From Octopus vulgaris (Eukaryota), in NCBI GenBank assembly GCA_951406725.2, contig OX597820.1, forward strand, positions 47,988,001-48,052,000: a stretch of 64,000 nucleotides of DNA. Reading direction: 5' to 3'. This document shows, one piece after another, positions 1-51,609 of this stretch (within the stretch, counting starts at the first letter, position 1; the number at the start of each line of letters is the position of its first letter). The notes beneath the pieces are model-generated. The model searched no databases, was not told the DNA's origin, and worked only from the letters and a program-made list of their open reading frames with translations. A program made the position numbers and the translations under genes.

Positions 1-1155
1 TAAACATGTCGAATATCGTGAAGTCCATGCCTGGTTATAGATTGTAGATTACAGTCGGTTTGGTATTCGAATTTCACGAGCAAAAAGAAATACTTGCATG
101 CTTGAAGTGCATGTCTTTTAGCATGTAAGTGCGACATTCCTACAACTTATGCCAACACGAGAAAATTTGAGGATTTATGTTTTCAGTCGAACACATATAA
201 ACTAGTATATTCCTTTATACTTGTGACATAGCTCCATTTCGTACAAACGTTGCTACTTCCTATACTTTTCAAAATCTATATACAGTTCAAATGGAATTTT
301 ATACTGTACTTGATTCGGGATCTAAATGAAATATTGGTATGTGTGAATCTTATCTTAGAGATGTTTTCCAGCAGATTGCTACAGGTTTCTACTCTAGGAT
401 AATCAGACATTTAACTACTACATATATATCGACAACTATTTGCTATTCAATATACAGCCAGCTGAAATTAGTAGACTCCTTGTAAGAATTCGAGAATTGT
501 GATTCTGCAGGATTTCAAAGCTCTTGTTGGACATCTTGAAATATACATTGGAAGTAGGATAATATGTATTGATTATTACAGGGAGGGTTCTACTGATTTT
601 TGTGGATACATTTAGGAGTTGAAGAGGAATAAGCCAGATAACTGTTGAGAGTTGTTCTATGTAACTTCTGTAGTAGATACAAAAGAGGGCAAATTTACTT
701 GCAATTCATCATATTGCTAGATGACATTCGGTTTAGCTCTACTGCAGTGTAGAATACCTGCATTATGTATTTTTCTATTCCTCAATAGTTTACATATATG
801 CTTGTCACTATTGACTGTAAAATGCCAACAACCAAATGAAGATAACTATCATCTATCCGTTGAATTGAGCATTTCCCTTGCTCGTTATACTGAGTGAGAG
901 TATATACCTTCCTATGTATCATTCTATGTATACATTCTTAAGTACACCATTTCGTCAATCGCAGCAGCTTCCAAGCTTCACCAATTCAATTCTCGACTAA
1001 ATTAAAAACAACAGTTTTAAAGAGGATACCTCCTGCTACACTTTGGCATAAATAGTTTGAGATTTGTTTCAGTAATAAAAAAGTTACATCAAAATATCTG
1101 AAACCTCAGCGGGGGTAGTAAGGCACCTATTCATCTTCAATTAACATATTTTTTT

Positions 1156-1352
1156 CAGTTCTATATTTAAGAGATGAGGAATCATATACATTATTTATAT
1201 TTTTTTACAATTGACGGATATTTGTCCTCATCTTGTTTGTTGTTAACACAACGTTTCGGCTGATATACCCTCCAGCCTTCATCAGGTTTCTTGGGGAAAT
1301 TTTGAACCTAGGTTCTCTTCCTAAGGTATTTTTCGATGTTTTTGTTATTATT
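1156..1352 (-). mobile_element. Family A short repeat (Penelope terminal-repeat-like, hammerhead-bearing), 3' part
   Basis: Reverse complement matches 9826-10012 and 36370-36524 (ends ...CTTAAATATAGAACTG); contains the hammerhead motif. Confidence 0.85.
1245..1290 (-). ncRNA. Minimal type I hammerhead ribozyme motif (family A)
   Basis: Minus strand: GAAAC-CUGAUGA-A-GGCUG-(10 nt loop)-CAGCC-GAAA-CG-UU-GUGUU; palindromic ACGU helix III; one mismatch in stem I. Confidence 0.75.
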
Positions 1353-2020: not shown

Positions 2021-2065
2021 AGATGAGGATAAATATCCGTCAATTGTAAATAATGTAAATAATAT
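2021..2065 (+). repeat. Family A fragment
   Basis: GATGAGGATAAATATCCGTCAATTGTAAATAATGTAAATAAT matches 9937-9980. Confidence 0.7.
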
Positions 2066-2297
2066 ATATATATTTTTTAATTTTAAAATAAAAGTATACT
2101 TTTCTTAGGCTTAAATAATAGAAAAGTGCATGCGGAATTCAGAATCGCCAGTCACATTGAACAAAATTACTAGAAAAAAGTCATGATGTGAAATGTAATG
2201 AAATTTATTGTCAGTATATGAAGAAGTAAGAAGTAATGCCCCAATCTATAATGTTAAGATAAGACTATATTTCTAAAATGAATGCTTTAATTCTGTC

Positions 2298-7876: not shown

Positions 7877-8630
7877 GGACCACAAGCAAAGGGAGACACA
7901 CACACACATTCATTCCTTTATATTGTCTTGAGAAGTATTCTGTGGACAAAAACGCCGTTGCTTAGAGGCTATTAACGGAAGTGCTTGTAAAATTTATGAT
8001 TGCAAGTGTCACAGGGAGAACTTGTGGCACTCATGCAGTTCAAGCATGACAAGGTATATATATTCACCTATTTTAACATAATCCTTCGTGGATGTACAAC
8101 GAAAGACACACAACCACGTTTACACTCACGTTTCCAGTCTTGTTTGCGCACACATACGCACACACACATACACGCACACACATGCTCACACACACGCATA
8201 CACACACACAGAGATACGCATAAAAAAACATTCATGCACACACATACATACATACATACACACATACATACATACACACATACATACATACATACATACA
8301 TACATACATACATACATACATGCATACATGCATACATGCATAGGTACATGCGTATGTATATAATTCTGGTTTACTCAATTGGTTAAGAAGTTCGTTTCGC
8401 AATCACATCCCGAAGTTGCATCTCATCATGCAACTTCAAATCGACCAAGGCTTGTGAAAGAAATTTAATACATACACACATGCATACATACTCGGTTTTA
8501 TGGAAAAAGCGCTAAAGAAATTAGCGATTCTTCAAATCAAATTTATTAGTGCCTCAGTGAAGATATGTAAGACATTCCAAAAATTCCCCATCTGAGATTC
8601 TTACGTAAATAGATGAACACTTTTGGGTGA

Positions 8631-8956
<326 letters not shown>

Positions 8957-9036
8957 CATATGGCGTAGTGGCTAAGATCTCGAGCTACAAATCCCCACGA
9001 TTCCGAGTTCGATTTCAGGTAGTGACCTGAATAATG

Positions 9037-9106
<70 letters not shown>

Positions 9107-9121
9107 GTAAATCTTTAAAAA

Positions 9122-9816
9122 AAACGAGGTAAATAAAACGTTCGAACAGAGATAGTCAGAAGCGACACCTACTGGGTCTGACTACGCTACATTGACAAAG
9201 GGCAAATACCCTGAAATGCGTCTGTAGCTGTCGGTCAAGTAGTGTGGAGAGACTGACCTCCCTTGTTCGAAGGTTATATGGATACAGTTTGTGTATCGAA
9301 TAGCTAACTTAAGGCGATGGCCTCATGGAGCTAATAAGCGGACAGCTTTTTTCTTATTTTTATAAGAATGCCATATTAGTATGGCGATAACTATTAATTT
9401 CCAGGAACGCTGCCGTAATCTCTTTTAGAGAGACTTAGTAATTTTAATATTTCTATTATTGAAACCAAGTGGATGTATTCCACCGAAACTAGGTAAATAA
9501 AACCTTCGAACAGAGATAGTCAGAAGCGACACCTACTGGGTCTGACTACGCTACATTGACAAAGGGCAAATACCCTGAAAAACGTCTGTAGCTGTCGGTC
9601 AAGTAGTGTGGAGCGATTGACCTCCCTTGTTCGAAGGTTATATGGATACAGTTTGTGTATCGAATAGCTGACTTAAGGCGATGGCCTCATGGACCTAATA
9701 AGCGGACAGCTTTTTTCTTATTTTTATAAGAATGCCATATTAGTATGGCGATAACTATTAATTTCCAGGAACGCTGCCGTAATCTCTTTTAGAGAGACTT
9801 AGTAATTTTAATATTT
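9122..9816 (+). repeat. Tandem duplication, 364-bp period, ~1.9 copies, highly self-complementary
   Basis: AGGTAAATAAAAC at 9127 and 9491; near-identical copies with only scattered substitutions. Confidence 0.95.
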
Positions 9817-9877
9817 GTATAATATCAACATCGAAAAATACCTTAGGAGTAAGAACCCGGGTTTGAAATTTCCCCAA

Positions 9878-9924
9878 GACACCTGATGAAGGCTGTAGGG
9901 TAAATCAGCCGAAACGTATGTGTT
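9878..9924 (+). ncRNA. Minimal type I hammerhead ribozyme motif (family A)
   Basis: GACAC-CUGAUGA-A-GGCUG-UAGGGUAAAU-CAGCC-GAAA-CG-UA-(U)-GUGUU; one extra base relative to the other copies. Confidence 0.7.
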
Positions 9925-10239
9925 AACAACAAACAAGATGAGAACAAATATCCGTCAAATGTAAATAATGTAAATAATGTACATAATTCCTCATCTCTTA
10001 AATATAGAACTGAAAAAAGAAATGTTGAAAATTGAACGACATTTGGGTGAATGCATCGAGAGTTCAACCAATACACCAACTCGACCACATATTTACAAAC
10101 ACCGGAAACACTTAACTCAAATAGCCTTATGACTTCCGTAGAGACTGGCTTCAACTCTCTTCAGGAGAACTTAAGTAAATCTAAAAAAAATTAAAAAAAT
10201 ACGCACATATATACATGCATGCTTACATACATACCTACT

Positions 10240-33144: not shown

Positions 33145-33721
33145 CTGTGAGTGTGTGTGAGCATGTATGCATATGATAAACTACGCAGTATGTATTTGTG
33201 TATATTGAAAGCAAAGGCTAAAACAAAGGTTCTCCACTCAGCGGGATACTCTGCTCTAAATTACTTCTAATTTCACGCCTTACCAAAATCATTTCGCTAA
33301 GCAGCTGGTAATGTAAATGGCCAACACTGTTCAGAACAGCGTGGTGCCTTGTTGGCATTATGTGTACGTTGTTCTTAATGTGTGCTAAAACTGTGTGCTT
33401 CAGTATATGTGAGAGGGTGTAGTTGTCGGCTTTTATTATTGGGTTGTTTGTTCTTGTTGCAAATAAACTCAAACCGCTAAATTGTAACAAAATAACCAGC
33501 CGCCGAGACGTGTAAATGTCGGCAGCGAGTTGATACGGTTTCGAATTTTCAAGGCACCAATTTTCAAGCTACTTAATTTTTCGTCACATATCATTATTCA
33601 CTTTGGAATTGCATGAAGATCATAACCTCACATTTTAGCCTTGCTTAACAGCGTATGAATTTTAAGTACTGATTTACTTTATATTCTGATAATGCTTTCA
33701 AAAAGTGAATGAAATTATATT

Positions 33722-34524
33722 GGCTTCAAATGTTGGCTCAAGACCAGCATGTTCGAGGTAAGTCGATTACATCAAACCCGGTGCTCAACTGGTAATTATT
33801 TTATCGACACCCAGGGTATGAAAGGCAAATTCGGTCTCGGTGGAATTAGAACTCAAAGCATAAACACGGACGAAATGCCGCTAAGCATTATGCCAGGCGT
33901 GCTAACGATTCTGCCAACTCGCCGCTTTATTGAATGAAATTACATTGCTTTCAAATTTGGGCACAAGGCCCGCAAGTTCGGGGGAGGAGATAAGTCAATT
34001 ACATCGATCTCAGTGCGTAACTGGTACTTATTTTATCCACACTGAAAGGGATGGATGGCAAAGTCGATGTCGGTGAAATTTTTAACTTAGGACGTAAAGA
34101 CGGATGATATGCCATTAAGCGTTTTGCTCAACGTGTTAAAAATTATATTCGTATCTATTCTAGACACAAGGCCCGAAATTTTGGGGGCGGTGGGGGGTTT
34201 GGCAGTCGATTAGATCGACCGACCACAGTACAGAACTGGTACTTAATTTATCGACTCCGAAAGGATGAAATGCGAAGTCGACGCGGTGGTATTTGAACTC
34301 AGAACGTAAAGACAGACGAAATACTGCTAATTATTTCGCCCATCGTGCTAATGTTTCTGCCAACTCGCCGCCTTGCATATACTTTTCTACTCTAGACACA
34401 AGGCCCGAATTTTTTGTTGAGGGGGCCAGGCGATTAGATCGACCCCAGTACGCAACTGCTACTTAAATTATCGACCCCGAAAGGATAAAATGGAAAGTCG
34501 ACCTCAGCGGAATTTGAACTCAGA
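33722..34524 (-). mobile_element. Four head-to-tail SINE family C copies; the last is truncated by the Penelope element
   Basis: Units ~33722-33927, 33945-34138, 34155-34375, 34383-34524 each with CACAAGGCC..GTCGATT..GGTACTT..AAGTCGAC..GAACTCAG blocks. Confidence 0.85.
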
Positions 34525-36524
34525 AAGATACCATCCTTGTAAATCTTAGGAAGACCGTACATGTGTGGTAGTTTACAGTGGTGTTGAGTCAGTTGTCTGT
34601 ACCTCATTGGTGTAAAATAATCCTTGTTCTTGATCAAGATCTGTGATAACTTCCTCTCTGTTTTCAATGTAGTGTCTTTCTTTACTCTGCTGTAGTAATA
34701 TCAAAAATTCTGACTAAACTGAAAAGTTGGCAAGTCTTATAAGTGATGGTAGCTACAGCAAAGTTAAGAAATATCCTACTTTGAAAACAGAAAGGAAGTT
34801 GTCATCGATCTTGATCAAGAACAAGGATCACTTTGCACCAATGAAGTACAGACAACTGACTCAATACTATAGTAAACTACCACACATGTCTTCCTCAGAT
34901 TCACAAGGTTGGTATTCCATTAAGACCTATAGTGAGCTGTAGAGATTCAGCATGTCATCCATTGAGCCGCTTCCTTTCCATTAGCAGGAAAGTCAACATC
35001 GTACGTGAAGAATTCCACCCACTTCACAGAATTGATCAAGAATACCACCATTGAATCCAACCAGATGGCGAGTCTAGATGTGATAAACCTATTCACCAAA
35101 GTTCCAACTGGTGAAGCACTATCGGTGATTCAAGAAAATTAGTGACAGATACCCATCTAAAAGAACGCACTAGTATATCAATAAGTAACTTGATGGAAAT
35201 GTTGACCTTCTGTGGAGAAACTACCGACTTCGGTATGGACACTGATATATATCGACAAGAGGAGTGTTTAGCTATGGTTTCGCTATTATAACCGGTAATA
35301 GCCAAGATATACATGGAATACTTTGAGAATTTGTCTTTAGGGTCAACACCATTAAAACCAATACTATGGCTACGATATGTTGATGACACCTTTATACTCT
35401 GGCCCCACTAAGATGTCCAAATGCTGTTAGATCATGTGAACTCAATAAAGCCATCCATACAGTTCACAATGGAAAAGGAAAAAGACAATCAGCTGGCATT
35501 CCTGGACGTATTAATAACTCGCACAAAGTATGGATTCAGGATATCCGTACACCGCAAGCCGACGTCTACTGGACGAGACCCCAACTTCAATTTCCATCAT
35601 CCATAGTGTAAAGAGAGGGATTTCTCAGTGTCTAAAACATCGTGCAAAGAATATAAGTAGCGATCGTGATACACACCACGAAGAAATGATCAAGCTCAAT
35701 AACGATCTGGTAAGCAATAACTACCACAAAAGTATAATATCCACTCCAATTATGAAGAAGAGAGAAGATGAGGCAAATAAACCGTCCACCCTATGTGAAA
35801 GGCCTCTCCGAAAAGATACAAAAGATATGCGTCCCATATGACATCAGGACAGTATTCAAGAGTATTACAACACTTCGCAAATATTTTCTTCGAGTAAAAC
35901 CACAATTAGAAGTGAATATGCCCAAAGACTGTGTGTACACCATCCCATGCACCTGTGGTAGGCTATACAGGGCGAAACATGCCACCCCCTCAAAATAAGG
36001 GAAGACGAACATCGTAAAGCTGGGACACAAGAAGATATTGATAAATCGGGTATAGCTGATCGTGTACGCAAAAATGGAGACCACCTCTCCCTGTGGGATG
36101 AAGTTGAAATAATAGACAGAGAACACCCCTGGAAAATACAAAAAGTAAAAGAAGCAGCACATGTACTAGAACACAACACCTCCTAAGCAGACCAAGTGCA
36201 GATATGAACAGCATATGGGAACTGGTATTAAGCAAGGATAGAAAAACGTTAGATTTATAAGCCCTAAAATTGCCCACGGGAATATGGCATAGTGGTTAAG
36301 AGCGCGGGCTACTAACCCCAAGATTCCGAGTTCGATTCCAAGCAATACTTAATAATACTTAATAATAATAACATAGAACCTAGGTTCAAAATTTCCCCAA
36401 GACACCTGAAGAAGGCTGGAGGGTATATCAGCCATAACAACAAACAAGATGAGGACAAATATCCGTCAATATATAAATAATGTAAATATTGTACATAATT
36501 CCCCATCTCTTAAATATAGAACTG
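34525..36524 (+). mobile_element. 5'-truncated decayed Penelope-like element (RT + GIY-YIG) with inverted 5' segment and family A 3' terminal repeat
   Basis: SLDVINLFTKVP (35071), YRQEECLAM..LSPVIA, WLRYVDDTF (35366), FTMEKE..LAFLDV, CVYTIPCTCGRLY (~35930), KVKEAAH; 34525-34696 is an inverted copy of 34753-34917; 36280-36524 is family A. Confidence 0.92.
36284..36345 (+). promoter_or_regulatory. tRNA-like internal Pol III promoter (A and B boxes) in family A
   Basis: TGGCATAGTGG, anticodon-like arm GGG-CTACTAA-CCC, GAGTTCGATTCC. Confidence 0.65.
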
Positions 36525-36861: not shown

Positions 36862-37076
36862 TGATTTCAACTTTTGACACAAGGCTTGTAGCTTTGTGGG
36901 TTGGGTTAAGTTGATTACATCGACTCTAATGCTCAAATGATACTTATTTTAGTAACCCCGAAAGGATGAAAGGCAAAGTCGACTTCGGCGGAATTTGAAC
37001 TCAGAACGTAAAGATGGACGAAATGTTGCTAAGCATTTTTCCAAGGGTGCTAACGATGCTACTAGCTCGCCGCCTT
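36862..37076 (-). mobile_element. SINE family C, full length
   Basis: Minus begins AAGGCGGCGAGCTAGTAG...GAGTTCAAATTCCGCCGAAGTCGACTTTGCC. Confidence 0.85.
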
Positions 37077-37870
37077 ACGTCAGCCATAGCTATTTTCTAC
37101 TTGTTTTTTAGTAGAATAGTATAGATTCGCGTAGAGAAGTCATGCGAATGCAGGGTAGAGTAAGAAATTGTGTAAAGAAGAAATATTGCGAATGAAAGTG
37201 ATATAAAGAGCGGTTTTAATGTGATATGATATGCTATGACCATGATGTATGGCGTGGATGATGGTAGTGATGTTACGATTATTGCAAGTCGTTAGCTGTT
37301 GTGACACGGGAAAATGTCCGAAAGGTAAGTTCTGCCTAAAGAAGTTATAGGTAACTTCACTCCATCATAAATGATGTCTGCCATAACGTCCAGCCATTCT
37401 TGCAGCATTGTGGCTTACGGGCGTCAATTACTCTGAAATTTCTAACATTGGAGCACATGCTCCTTGTAGGGAATCTCATACTGGACAAGTCAATGGATAG
37501 AACTCAGATTAATATGGAATACCTTTTCTCAGAGGTGTAGGGGCAACTACTTTAACTAGAGGAAAGCAAATTTACAAAAGCACCGATGGCAATACAAGGC
37601 CAATTTAGACCTGGGAGAGAACTTCCCAGAGTCGGAAACAGTGGAGAAAAGTTGTCGATAGTTTATGATCACGTGGAGCGAAGGGCTTAAAAAGAATAAG
37701 ACAAAAATATGGAACGTGGTGCGTCGATGTAATGTTTTAGCAACTTAAATTATAGCCGTAATGAGAAAAACATTTCCTAGCGTCATTACTCTGACATTAT
37801 TAAAGGTAAAGAATAATGACAAAATAAGTTTGCCATCAATTTGAAGATGAGTACAATACATGATATTATT

Positions 37871-39996: not shown

Positions 39997-40091
39997 GTGT
40001 GTGAGTGTGACTGCTCTGACTGGACGTCAATCACATTAGCTTTTTCCCTTAACACACCTCATTTCATTAAGTGTCTACCTATCTACCTGTT

Positions 40092-40131
<40 letters not shown>

Positions 40132-40285
40132 CTATCTATCTATACATACCTAAACATGTACAACATACATATATGCGTACGTATATATACATATACATAC
40201 ATATATATACATACATAGACACATGCATAAATACAGGCATATATTCATACACACATATACATACACAATTGTATGTATGTGTATG

Positions 40286-40316
<31 letters not shown>

Positions 40317-40874
40317 ACTGATGAATATTTCTACTTTATCACGATTTACGGTATCGTATTTAATAAAATACGTCTCATACGTGGGTGAATGATATCAAGT
40401 ATCTTTTTCGAAAACAAACTTCTAAATGTATCCCATCCACCTAAAAATACGTACCTAACATAAAATTTAAAGTCTTGGAGAAATAACTATATTCCTGACA
40501 TGTGTCTATGTTGTTATAATCGGGTTCTCAGGCGCCAATGGATAGAAGTTGATGAGCCAGATAAACTGCCCTATGTGTTGCTGGTCTAGGCACAGTGGCA
40601 AAGCTTATAATTACTGATGCTCGTAGAGTTTACTCTGACCCTGCAATCATGCTAGTCACAGAAAGTCATGTGTAAACATAATACTTTCAAATCTGTCACA
40701 TTACCACATGGAAACTGCTGTCGCTGAATTTGAATATCCCGTCGGAATTCCCACTGATACCAGCATCATCTCTTCTCTATCACGTGGATTTGACGTAAAA
40801 GAAAAAAAATGCGTGACTTGAACTGAGCTATGGCAACCTAAATATTCTCTCCTAGAACCCATTTGTTATGTTAT

Positions 40875-41105
40875 TCTTTTACATATTTCAGTCATTTGAC
40901 TGCGGCCACGTTAGAGCACCACGTTTAGTCGAACAGATTGGCTGCAGGACTTATACTTTCTAACTTTGTTACTTATTCTCTCGTTGTCTTTTGCCGAACC
41001 GCTAAGTTAGCGGGCATATAAACACACCAGCATTGGTTGTCAAGCGATGGTGGTGGTGGTGGCGGCGGAGGGACAAATACACACACACACACACAAATAT
41101 ATGTA

Positions 41106-41156
<51 letters not shown>

Positions 41157-41280
41157 GACGGGTCTCTTTCATTTTCCGTCTACCAAATCTACTCACAAGG
41201 CATAGGGCATTAATCGGCCCGAGGCTATAGTACTATAGTAGAAGACAATTGCCCAAGGTGCCACGAGGTGGAACTGAAAA
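40875..41280 (-). mobile_element. SINE family B
   Basis: Family blocks in order with an internal (TA)n. Confidence 0.88.
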
Positions 41281-41342
41281 CAGATCCATTCAGCATTATC
41301 AGCCACAAGACGTGTTCAGGCAGAAGTGAACTTCAAGTTTAG

Positions 41343-41598
41343 TTAAAATGTTTGTGACATATTTCAACCCCTAAAGGCAAATTCACTGCAGTTGCAACGG
41401 GGAAAAATTTGTCTCGTATTGTAAAAGTTGTAAAAACGTTTACCATAAAATGCTAGAAACACGTCTAGAAATCAGACAGGGGGAAGCACTGGATAGATAT
41501 GGTGTTTTTACGCCATAAGAGAGAATCTTTTTATCCATGGTAACTGTAGTGAATTTGCTTTCAGGAGTTCAAATATGTCACAAATATATTTTAAATAA
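41343..41598. mobile_element. MITE-like element with ~60-bp imperfect TIRs
   Basis: TTTGTGACATATTTCAACCCCTAAAGGCAAATTCACTGCAGTT vs reverse complement of AACTGTAGTGAATTTGCTTTCAGGAGTTCAAATATGTCACAAA. Confidence 0.75.
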
Positions 41599-41669
41599 TC
41601 TAGTTGCTAGTTCGTTCGAATCCATCATTCTTCTTGAGACTTCGTTTTGTTAATCTCGACTGATGCTGA

Positions 41670-42000
41670 TTAATATTCATGGAAGCAATAATTATGTCTC
41701 CATGCATCCAGTTCACTCTGACAGTTCAAATTTGGCCTCTGATTCTTAATAAAATGGTTTTCTATTAATCTGAGTTTGACTACATACACCCACCTCGCTA
41801 GCGTGGTGCAAAATTCTCCTTTGGAATGTTGGCGGTGCTTGAATACTGTGCTGGATGGTGTGGCTGTGAAGAAGTGTTTCTTCACTCTGTTGTGAAGTTG
41901 TTTTCTAGGAGATTCGATGTACTTAGCTTTACAAGAATAAGATAGTTGGTAGGAAGCGTTTGATTTCAAACACTGCTAGACGTTTTCCGTTGGTTAAATC
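41670..42000 (-). mobile_element. Penelope-like GIY-YIG endonuclease remnant
   Basis: SNASYQLSYSCKAKYIES..KQLHNRVKKH...VFKH...KLRLIENHFIKNQRPNLN matches the GIY-YIG layout. Confidence 0.7.
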
Positions 42001-42346
42001 TTTCTAATCGTGCAGAGGTGTAGGGAACAAAAATTTCGTGTGTTATTGCTGATAATATGGTTGTTGTAATTGTTGCTGCTTTTGTTGCAGCTACTGAGAG
42101 GTGGTTTCTGAGCGTCTGGCCCCGTTTCGTGATTCAAATAGGGTTGTCAGGTCTGGTGCTGTTTTTTTCAACTTAATTGCGATCGTTTCTCTGTAATAGA
42201 GTAGATTCAAGTATACTAAATGTTCATTTGATTCTTTTCTCTCCATTTCTTTCCGTCTTCATTGTTACTTCTGTTGCCATTGATGTTGTAGGCACACACG
42301 CACGCACGCACACACGCTCATAGATTGCGCCACTGAGTCTAACAAA

Positions 42347-42516
42347 CTAGAAATGGCGAGTTTAAATTCCTGTTCGAAATATGTAATTTTCAAAGTGATA
42401 CATAATCACTGATCTTATAAAGAGAAGAATTATTATTACTATTTATGAGATCAGTGTTTGTATGTCACTTTGAAAAGTATATACTTTGAACAGGAATTTA
42501 GTGACGCCATCTCTAG
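42347..42516. repeat. Foldback hairpin with ~75-bp arms and ~20-nt spacer
   Basis: CTAGAAATGGCG..AAATTCCTGTTC..TTTTCAAAGTGA..CACTGATCTTATAAA mirrored by TTTATGAGATCAGTG..TCACTTTGAAAA..GAACAGGAATTT..CGCCATCTCTAG. Confidence 0.85.
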
Positions 42517-42774
42517 CCGAGCAGTTATTTTGTGCTGATGAAGAGAAAAATCCCGAAACCATTGGTACACAGATATTGGTCTGAGGTGAGTGGGGACACT
42601 GAGCTCCCTTGATCGAAAATATAAGGACGCAGATAGTTCATCAATATCCAATAGAAAACGATGTTTTCTGGGGCTAAATAACGGTAACATTCGTCATAAT
42701 CAGGACTGCCACATTATGTTGGCAAATAATCTTTACTCTCTCTCTCACTCTTTCTCTCTGTATATATATGTATA

Positions 42775-42957
42775 TTCTTTTGTCTTTTTATTTGTTTCAG
42801 TTATTTAACTGCGGCCATGTGGAGCACTGCCTTTAGTCAAGCAAATCAACCCCAGGATTTATTCTTTGTAATCCTAGTACTTATTCTATCGGTCTGTTTT
42901 GCCGAACCGGTAAGTAAACACATCAACATCGGTTGTCAAGCGATGTTGGGGGGACAA

Positions 42958-42992
<35 letters not shown>

Positions 42993-43115
42993 CGACGGGC
43001 TTCTTTCAGTCTCCGTCTATCAAATCCACTCACAAGGCTTTAGTCGGGCCAAGGCTATAGTAGATGACACTTGCCAAAGGTGTCACGCAGTGGAACTGAA
43101 CCATGTGGTTGGTAA
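42775..43115 (-). mobile_element. SINE family B (head truncated next to the Penelope element)
   Basis: Family blocks in order. Confidence 0.88.
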
Positions 43116-43126
43116 TCAAGGAGAAT

Positions 43127-45820
43127 GTAGAAAAGTAATACGCGTGTTGATATGTATAAGGAAAATAGGAGAAGGTAGAAAATGCTAAAATAAGTTTAGC
43201 ATGAAGTACATGTTAGTGCCCGTTTCCGTCTTTTAGACAGTTTGAACTAAGAGAAAAATAAGAAAAACAATTAAAGAAGAGAAAATAAATGAAATGAAAT
43301 GTTTTGTAAATATTTCCATAGTCCTCAAGTAGTGTGTCTCTCTCTCTCTCTCTCTCTCTTCCTTTGTGAATGTTTGGTCGGTAGGTATATAGCAAATCTG
43401 AAGAAATAGTTTTATGAATACAGGGAATTGATGGCTTAAAAAGGAGCAGCCGAGTGAGGAGAAGAAGATGGAGAAGAAGAAGAAGGAGGAGAAGAAGGAG
43501 GAGAAGAAGGAGGAGAAGAAGGAGAAGAAGAAGAAGGAGGAGAAGAAGGAGGAGAAGATGAAGAAGGAAGAGAAGTGGGAGTAGTGAAAGAAGAGGAAGG
43601 AGCAGAAAGAAAAGAAAAAATACAGGAGTGGTGTTACACAGTAGATTCTTCATGGAATCTTTTTTAATGGTAAAATTACCTAAAAGTGACCTGGTGTGGT
43701 CGTAGCCGTAGTGGTTGGAATTGTCCTAACTTTTTGTAGTAGTTTCATCTGTGGCGGAAGCATTCAAAAGATGATTACATTTTGCGATAAAATATGCTTC
43801 ATTGCTAATGCGCTTATTATAGGTTGCATTGCCCCTGAATTTATAGAGGGGAAAAATTCTGAACTCGGGTTCTTCGTTTGTAGCGCAAATATCGATGTGC
43901 TCGCTCAATCCTATTCTTTTGTATTCCCATATTTTAATCTGGAATCTATGTACCTTCATCCTCTGGCGTAGACTATTTTTAGTTTGACCAATATATTGTT
44001 CTCGACACCCTGAGCAAGTTAATACAAATATTAGATTTTCCGAATCAAATGTGAAGTAGTTTTTCATTGTAAAACTTGACCCTGTTTGCAGGAGAATTCC
44101 GATCCCTCATTTAGGTTGACACATATACCACAGTTAGGTCTTCCGCATTTTTTACTGTTGCTCAATGCCATTGACGTGTGTTCTTGGGCCTGTGGTAGAA
44201 TACTTTCATTGACTTGGGTTGTCTTTTACTCTTTACGTTCTGGTGTACGTTCTGAGGATTTGATCAACTCTAGGGTCCCTGTTTAGTAAAGGGATGTTCT
44301 GGAGGATGGTGTCGAAGTCCTCATTGTTTATGGGATTGTGTTGGATATGTATGGTAGGGCTTTTGGTTGTAAATTCCTCTTTAGTTTGGGGTGTCTGAGT
44401 TCGTGGATGAGTTGTAGGGCATGTTGAAAGGCTATATCAGTTAGTGATGGTGGGGTAGTTCCTGCTGATGAATGTATCCTTTTGTCCTTGTCGTGTGTCC
44501 CTAGTTCTTGTGTCATATAGTATAGTGCAAATTATTTTTGCCAGGTAGTAAGAGATATTCATTCTAGTGTGTCTGGAGTGGCATGTGTTGAATGGCAGGT
44601 ATTGCTTGGAGTCCGTGGGCTTATAATATATATCTGTTTCTATTTTGCTGTTGGATTTTCTTAATGAGGATTGCGGGGAATGGAAGTTGTTGATGGCTAT
44701 ATTCCAGTCTAAATTTAATGTTTATGTCAGCTACATTTATAAGTACTTGAAATTCTTTAAGTCTCTCTATACTTTCGTGCCAAAGAGTAAAACGTCATCT
44801 AGAAATCTTTTCCAGTTATTTTCTTTGTACAGGGAGAATGGGTTTCCATATTTTCCTAGTACTATACGATAAAGATTGATTTCTAGGTACTCCATGACTA
44901 GGTTACCAAAATAAGGGGCCATTCGCGTGCTCATCACAGTCCCTGATCTGTCGATTGAAGTTGTCATTAAATACGAAGGAGTTATTCTCCAAGACGAATT
45001 TTAGCCCTTCTATTACGAATTTTATTTCGATGCTCTGTGTGAGTTCATTGCAGAATAGAGGTTGACTACATCAAAAGATACTAGTATGTTGTTTTTATCT
45101 ATTGTTTCAGGGAGGTGATTGAGCATATCTAGGTCGTCTCTTATGTAACTTTTGATATGCTTCAGGAATAGTTTTAAGAGGATGTCTAAAATGTTACTGA
45201 GGCGGTGAAATTCGCATGCGGAGCCTGCTATTATGGGTCTTAATTCGAGGTCATTAAGAGTAGGTACCTTGACTGTTATATCTGTGGCTCCGCTGCAGGC
45301 GTCACTTATTTTTTCCCTTTAGTGTATCTTAAGAATACCGTAGATTTTGACTGGATTTATTATTAAAGTTAGTCATATAATCGTATTTCTTGTCGGTGAG
45401 ACCTTTTCCGTATAGGTCTAACATTGTTATTAGGCTTATTATTTTCTGTTGACTGTAGTGTTGTACCTTTTCATAATATGTTGTGCCTTCTAAAATAGAT
45501 AGTACTAGGGCTAAATAATATACCGTGTACATTAAGACTACTGCACTCCCTTTACCAGCCTTTTCGATTGGTATTGTTTTATTATGCTTTAATCTGTTCA
45601 GCTCAGCCCATTAATTTTTGCTGAAGTTTGACTTGTGTTTTTGTTTGTGTATATGCTGATATGGATAATTCGTGATGTGTTCACAGAAATGTATCTCGTG
45701 TGGGAGTATGATATATAGAAGGTAGAAAAGTAACACACGAGTCGATATGTATAAGGAAAATAAGACAAGGTAGAAAATGCTAAAATAAGTTTATCAGGAA
45801 GTATATTTTAGTACCGGTTC
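43127..45820 (-). mobile_element. Decayed Penelope-like element, Neptune-type (RT, Cys-rich linker, GIY-YIG), with ~95-bp terminal direct repeats
   Basis: LELRPIIAG, LVSFDVVNLYS, SGTVMSTRMAPYFGNL, WKRFLDDV, KCGRPNCGICV, NLIFVLTCSGCREQYIGQT..LRQRM..H; direct repeat 43127-43226 / 45722-45820. Confidence 0.9.
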
Positions 45821-51557: not shown

Positions 51558-51609
51558 CTGCTCGAGTCTGATGACGAGCAAAGACTCAGAAACTAGTCTC
51601 TGGATGCAG
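51558..51609 (+). ncRNA. Type I hammerhead motif, degenerate stems
   Basis: CUGCUCGAGU-CUGAUGA-C-GAG-CAAAGA-CUC-A-GAAA-CUAG-UC-UCUGGAUGCAG; palindromic ACUAGU and GUC. Confidence 0.6.

Follow-up and report, generated by a model that had tools for sequence, protein, structure and literature searches.

Endonuclease-positive (EN+) Penelope-like elements (PLEs), such as Poseidon of the green anole (PAc; PMC11167929, PMC8557442, PMC4209133), are the closest described relatives of the octopus element analyzed here. As described in the excerpted text of these reports, they carry a reverse transcriptase (RT) and a C-terminal domain, and their pseudo-LTR overlaps the start of the open reading frame (ORF). 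In elements of the PAc type, the first codons also contain a minimal type I hammerhead, RT can start at two sites and thereby gives an optional tail, insertions are tandem and inverted, and lone hammerhead copies are numerous. The available part of the anole study reports that the PAc ORF begins in the hammerhead, that RT starts at two internal sites, and that the template must reach ∼55 to 60 nt past the RT start (PMC11167929). The octopus element resembles these PLEs in all of the features of architecture and insertion listed above. It differs in that its pseudo-LTR opens with a tRNA-like head bearing A and B boxes, followed by an (AAT)n tract, and that 5′ ends of copies pile up there; the excerpts on PAc-type PLEs mention no such head.

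Other repeats share single traits with the octopus cassette. Cassandra, Helenus, and Ajax (TRIMp3; PMC10886601) also have, in the terminal repeat, a Pol III promoter derived from a small RNA and attributed to a SINE insertion; in the text available, they are described as LTR elements that have PBS/PPT but are not autonomous, with autonomous partners presumed to rely on Pol II, whereas the octopus head sits in an autonomous element. In schistosome SM-alpha (PMC6765202, PMC8490949), too, a type I hammerhead lies downstream of a Pol III-type promoter, but the SM-alpha units are, according to the excerpts, cleaved from tandem transcripts and have no ORF, whereas the ends of the octopus cassette ignore the cut site and its hammerhead lies within an ORF. 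Non-LTR retrozymes (bioRxiv 10.64898/2026.07.22.740005), MRC1, and non-autonomous Chlamys (PMC8557442) are similar in being short, non-coding hammerhead units that are related to pseudo-LTRs and moved by PLE enzymes. They form head-to-tail arrays, whereas octopus copies are single or head-to-head, and the words Pol III, promoter, and tRNA are absent from the accessible portion of the bioRxiv report. Finally, the octopus tRNA-SINEs OK, OR1, and OR2 (Ohshima and Okada 1994, via PMC4758252 and PMC4824008) have tRNA-derived heads and probably belong to the same animal group; OR1 and OR2 are summarized there as CORE-SINEs, and as the comparison is by description only, the cassette may equal one of the three.

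Several components are therefore already in print. Minimal hammerheads have been described both within pseudo-LTRs and as solitary, truncated copies (PMC4209133), and arms in inverted orientation and tails are likewise documented (PMC8557442). Also published are non-autonomous PLE derivatives, the combination of Pol III and hammerhead in SM-alpha, and Pol III heads in the terminal repeats of non-autonomous TRIMs. A tRNA-type head in the pseudo-LTR of an autonomous Penelope was not found in the literature searched, which included the available text of PMC7761336 and PMC13282606; Repbase, Dfam, SINEBase, the supplements of PMC13282606, and Ohshima and Okada 1994 lay outside this search and may name the family otherwise. 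Here, we assign the octopus cassette to an autonomous Penelope-like retrotransposon, as its pseudo-LTR, and argue, with moderate confidence, that its head is likely an internal Pol III promoter that sets most of the copied RNA 5′ ends.

The cassette is the pseudo-LTR of a Penelope-like family

The window analyzed is a 64-kb stretch of Octopus vulgaris DNA, and all plain coordinates refer to it; signed positions count from the start of the head. A Penelope insertion at 34528 to 36524 opens with a short inverted 5′ arm (34528 to 34695, minus strand), an inverted part of the RT region that was recognized by a self-match (34528 to 34915, 79%) and that maps reversed onto the RT region of other copies. 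Translation of the plus strand then gives a broken, 5′-truncated Penelope ORF (34700 to 36260; stop codon at 36258 to 36260) with the RT followed by a C-terminal endonuclease-like domain. Next on the same strand come a spacer (36261 to 36277), which across the family is a degenerate inverted copy of the head start able to form a hairpin; the tRNA-like head (36278 to 36346; A box, 36285 to 36295; B box, 36329 to 36339); a degenerate (AAT)n tract (36347 to 36372); and the pseudo-LTR body (36373 to 36524), which corresponds to the first codons of the ORF and includes a tail of ∼30 nt ending at 36524. A minimal hammerhead inside the body (36401 to 36433, plus strand) has lost its 3′ half, and in the alignment an 11-nt deletion after it takes out the GAAA and the cut site. 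Two further deletions mark this copy, one of 12 nt in the spacer and one of 7 nt that takes out the ORF start codon. Alignment thus bore out the order given for 36271 to 36524 in the original prediction, from the ORF end through a tRNA-like head and (AAT)n to a half-deleted hammerhead. Nested copies of another abundant short repeat lie on both sides of the insertion (33720 to 34530 and 36870 to 37080).

The ORF matched the Pfam domain RVT_1 in a sister copy (L342; E = 5.8e-8) and in a relative (P0001; E = 1.2e-11). The segment at 35971 to 36180 is 54% identical to the C terminus of the P0001 protein, and the C-terminal domain of the ORF may be a GIY-YIG endonuclease, to judge from the resemblance of its motifs; in L342 and P0001 no Pfam or PDB match to such a domain was obtained. 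Five related proteins, none accompanied by flanking DNA, showed 29 to 63% identity to the ORF, and the metagenome contigs yielded no relatives with DNA context.

To place the cassette within the family, we searched with the 371 nt immediately preceding the head and cut 30 loci from the 40 top matches. In 30/30 the ORF 3′ end continued into the head, once through an insertion, which confirms the cassette as a fixed 3′ part of this Penelope family, as had been proposed. The same linkage rules out chance adjacency of ORF and cassette. At the other end, upstream DNA was taken for 33 of the 40 main matches to the N-terminal part of the ORF, and in 29 of these the cassette tail lay directly ahead of the ORF 5′ start. 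Four of the 29 run back through a head into the end of a previous ORF, and two (L392 and L407) begin at the head; in L342, too, the cassette tail runs on into the N-terminal part of the ORF. An ATG lies ∼30 nt before the hammerhead; this motif is retained in 13 family copies, and in 6 of them it is in frame through the ribozyme and tail into the ORF, such that the hammerhead-bearing body encodes the first ∼55 codons. Within the repeat unit, the ORF and its stop codon are followed by a 30-nt spacer, the head, (AAT)n, the ATG, the hammerhead, the tail, and the rest of the ORF. Its linkage to both ends of the ORF and the shared reading frame identify the cassette as the pseudo-LTR of this autonomous Penelope-like family, a partial tandem overlapping the ORF start.

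The insertions themselves have the form known from EN+ PLEs, with inverted 5′ arms and an optional 30- to 40-bp tail, and two windows in the tail (+215 to +236 and +250 to +257) account for 97 of 109 3′ ends. Contig sets from four organisms cover the ORF end, head, and body, with contigs bridging stop and head in three of the four among those listed. Copies of the family lie about 5 to 7% from the consensus. The commonest variant of the hammerhead core (+142; window position 36410) alters the free N7 position of the ribozyme and, in the ORF that overlaps it, replaces Asp with Glu, so ribozyme and protein alike tolerate it.

Other copies in the window only partly matched the original prediction, which had placed the same cassette at 1156, 8631, and 8957. 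The second is indeed a complete free pseudo-LTR copy, the long arm of its insertion, with head and intact hammerhead core (8628 to 8958, minus strand). The first (1136 to 1348, minus strand) is a body without a head; its hammerhead is intact, and another element follows the AAT tract. The third is the opposite, split arm of the 8628 insertion (8956 to 10014, plus strand), comprising a head (8956 to 9030), (AAT)n, a foreign repeat (9122 to 9823), and a body (9825 to 10014). Because this copy consists of head and (AAT)n with its body displaced to 9825 to 10014, pushed off by two units of a 364-bp repeat inserted in the AAT tract, 8628 to 10014 is a single head-to-head insertion and not two free cassettes. 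The body at 9825 and a tail fragment at 2021 to 2070 (plus strand) had been overlooked, and the latter is probably the opposite arm of the 1136 insertion. Three window copies of the hammerhead have the core and 5-bp stems I and II without stem III, which matches the minimal type I form. More generally, the (AAT)n tract is often split by other elements, including coding retroelement fragments that themselves end in AAT repeats (1339 to 2020, L289, L292, L207, and L217), so that many copies appear headless or bodiless; among 13 head-bearing loci without an adjoining body, 7 had the body elsewhere in the locus and 6 had none.

The pseudo-LTR opens with a tRNA-like head

The head carries consensus-type A and B boxes at +8 and +52. 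It is colinear with host tRNA-Arg(TCT), the best match among six isotypes retrieved, at 50 of 73 identical positions (score, 62; maximum in 2,000 shuffles, 40). ARAGORN made no tRNA call on the head; Rfam gave neither tRNA nor hammerhead among the matches listed (150 of 240) and made no call on copy L025 either. Heads of other abundant SINEs of the genome align to it without gaps and in the same start register, as weak matches (E = 0.02 or worse; 47 of 73 positions to a ten-copy consensus). The direct source of the head may be either a tRNA or a SINE. The earlier suggestion of a tRNA- or SINE-like head that was probably captured is supported. We read the inverted copy of the head start in the spacer as the scar of a capture by Penelope-type inverted insertion.

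Copied 5′ ends pile up at the head

We quantified where insertions end on their 5′ side by pooling 72 rows from position-ordered and random loci and dropping 5 apparent segmental duplicates; 5 rows at −14 or −17 were reclassed by eye as perfect fold-backs. Of the resulting 67 ends, 41 lie within −8 to +3, 8 farther upstream, and 18 downstream, in samples anchored on head or body motifs and including 30 loci anchored at +4 to +25 that were unable to end downstream. Taken by itself, an unselected 1-Mb sample, made up of 100 stretches of 10 kb spaced evenly over the 2.8-Gb genome, has 5 of 11 ends within −8 to +3. Exact 20-mers gave a genome-wide profile of 11849 (+184), 8740 (+143), 8633 (+88), 5581 (+33), 4356 (+4), 1027 (−38), and 394 (−222), counts that take in both arms of inversions and depend on the mutability of each motif. 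They drop four-fold at the head start, where the loss per base is 0.034 versus 0.005 to 0.009 in neighboring intervals. Ends on the ORF side are spread over 42 to 1570 nt without a pile (29 loci), and 122 contigs of one outside DNA run depart from the reference at head position +2.

A pile-up at this position might also arise if the head were a passive, captured SINE fragment in a Pol II-driven pseudo-LTR, with copies stopped by cDNA snap-back on the palindrome at the head start. The degenerate inverted copy of the head in the spacer allows a hairpin to form (−13.4 kcal/mol). Five ends make complete palindromes, and the fold-back base lies before the hairpin in 9/9 ends at −7; in total, folding back on the hairpin is seen at 14 of the 41 clustered ends, as snap-back predicts. 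Heavy 5′ truncation and inverted arms are moreover normal for PLEs (PMC8557442), and single minimal hammerheads have been described as truncated PLEs (PMC4209133), insofar as the excerpts of both papers extend. However, the other 27 clustered ends stop within the hairpin without completing it, and several of these lie in unique flank without inversion (L254, L280, L133, and L284) or are joined to an arm starting 15 to 200 nt away. In addition, the region folds no better than shuffled sequence (z = −0.19), and in free copies the B box has changed less than any other part of the head (2.4% versus 4.1%, as a descriptive comparison). Snap-back as the general cause is therefore a serious possibility but an unlikely one, and we favor a head that sets the RNA 5′ end as a Pol III promoter.

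Free copies are not a separate SINE lineage

The cassette is abundant. From 16 clusters in the 1-Mb sample, two of which are probably one insertion, we estimate roughly 40,000 to 45,000 cassette loci genome-wide. A long ORF piece was present in one of the 16 clusters, and free copies exceed ORF sequence 20- to 30-fold. This excess, together with copies that begin at the head and look like SINEs, fits the two-component system of the original prediction, in which an independent tRNA-SINE with master copies of its own borrows the Penelope enzymes; non-autonomous PLE derivatives are known. In a comparison of 53 ORF-linked and 104 free copies, however, the free class had no private variants. Both subfamily sites were shared at the same frequencies (+64, 26/23 ORF-linked and 52/52 free, P = 0.73; +142, 33/14 and 73/28, P = 0.85), and the three main haplotypes were common to both classes. 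Site +227 differed between classes (P < 0.001), a difference that we attribute to how the short tandem repeat at this site aligns, and a CpG site at +11 gave P = 0.005. The divergence of free copies (4.6% versus 6 to 7%) was not used as evidence, the sets having been chosen differently.

Since variant frequencies are the same in the two classes, and since the body is the ORF's own start, the free copies are not a separate SINE lineage, and the proposal of a distinct second element is not supported. No free SINE joining this head to a different tail was found in the 1 Mb plus the window. Free copies also end at the RT start; if the requirement for template beyond that point, known from the anole element, holds here, they would by analogy be unable to act as masters and would derive from the RNA of tandem elements. 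We consider an independent SINE component improbable. The accompanying idea that Penelope machinery moved the free copies is upheld by their inverted arms and two-site tail, which are those of Penelope insertions. Some near-identical copies share flanks or deletions (L271/L272/L273 at C1 7.9 to 9.05 Mb, L290/L291, L292/L293, and L307/L308), pointing to local segmental duplications.

The head as a candidate Pol III promoter

We infer that the head, probably captured from a tRNA-SINE, likely serves as a Pol III promoter. On this model, an inverted insertion of the Penelope type would have captured a tRNA-SINE head downstream of the stop codon, and in tandem copies that head would drive an RNA running into the ORF. 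The element's own RT would start inside that RNA at the tail, as it does in vitro for the anole element, and would copy back just ∼260 nt to the RNA 5′ end. Tens of thousands of SINE-looking solo copies could result without a separate SINE master. Three RNA-seq runs, with reads cut at the repeat tract and a family that is old, showed strands of about equal depth, with neither a start site nor higher coverage at the head, and a search of sequencing runs listed no RNA run as holding the family.

A bolder version holds that the whole 2.6-kb protein-coding RNA is made by Pol III from the captured head, with the ORF purged of T4 terminators and one promoter yielding both mRNA and the SINE-like solo swarm. 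The sense consensus (∼2.6 kb; depth, 5 to 84) contains no T4 run versus 33 A4 runs; 2.9 to 4.5 T4 runs were expected (P = 0.008 to 0.058 over four nulls, including 0.025 for codon permutation, 0.008 for weighted codons, and 0.058 for a Markov null). A5 runs are also depleted (P = 0.007). T4 runs numbered 176 versus 163 expected in 57 other long ORFs and 10 versus 15 in 12 ORFs of the family, 7 of these 10 falling in two rows that include non-family sequence. Some other A-rich ORFs of the genome are also poor in T4 runs, and other PLE families, the potential matched controls for this test, left only two weak traces in the sampled loci. The absence of T4 runs is thus only suggestive of Pol III transcription of the whole element. 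Kojima 2024 argues that Pol III lacks the processivity that autonomous elements require, which counts against the promoter reading in general. We put the whole-RNA version forward tentatively and regard it as doubtful.

Transcription starting at the head through Pol II, with the A and B boxes merely opening chromatin, would account for the 5′ pile-up, would leave the mRNA capped and translatable, and suits PLEs in that their promoters sit in the pseudo-LTR, but it leaves the lack of T4 runs and the SINE-like start register unexplained and is highly improbable.

A head that does function as a Pol III promoter would represent a type of Penelope promoter absent from the literature searched and would offer a short, defined cis-unit for in vitro assays of PLEs. 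If it also drives the ORF, the product would be a rare case of a Pol III-made mRNA, and the hammerhead in the first codons could gain a testable role. The cassette also illustrates how excessive copying of the front end of a Penelope RNA can generate a SINE-looking family with no SINE master behind it, a point relevant to repeat annotation in genomes rich in unclassified SINEs.

The hammerhead does not define the copied ends

The cassette had also been proposed to be a ribozyme-processed element. Internal starts fell at the hammerhead cut site in 5 of 130 cases, with 5.0 expected, and 20-mer counts on either side of the site differed by the background rate. With no excess at the site and background-rate counts across it, copy ends set by the ribozyme are ruled out, and the hammerhead does not define the copied ends. 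Head-to-tail arrays of the cassette were absent from the 16 clusters of the 1-Mb sample. For the anole element, hammerhead cleavage is not required in vitro, as stated in the excerpted text (PMC11167929).

Two further hammerhead-like features were observed in the window. The repeat at 9122 to 9823 (plus strand) consists of two 364-bp head-to-tail units with 97% identity; both units contain a degenerate hammerhead-like fold (z = −2.25). Close relatives form tandem and inverted arrays in L133 and L128, and the units look like a non-LTR retrozyme or another PLE derivative. A separate hammerhead-like motif at 51558 to 51603 (plus strand) belongs to a different family.
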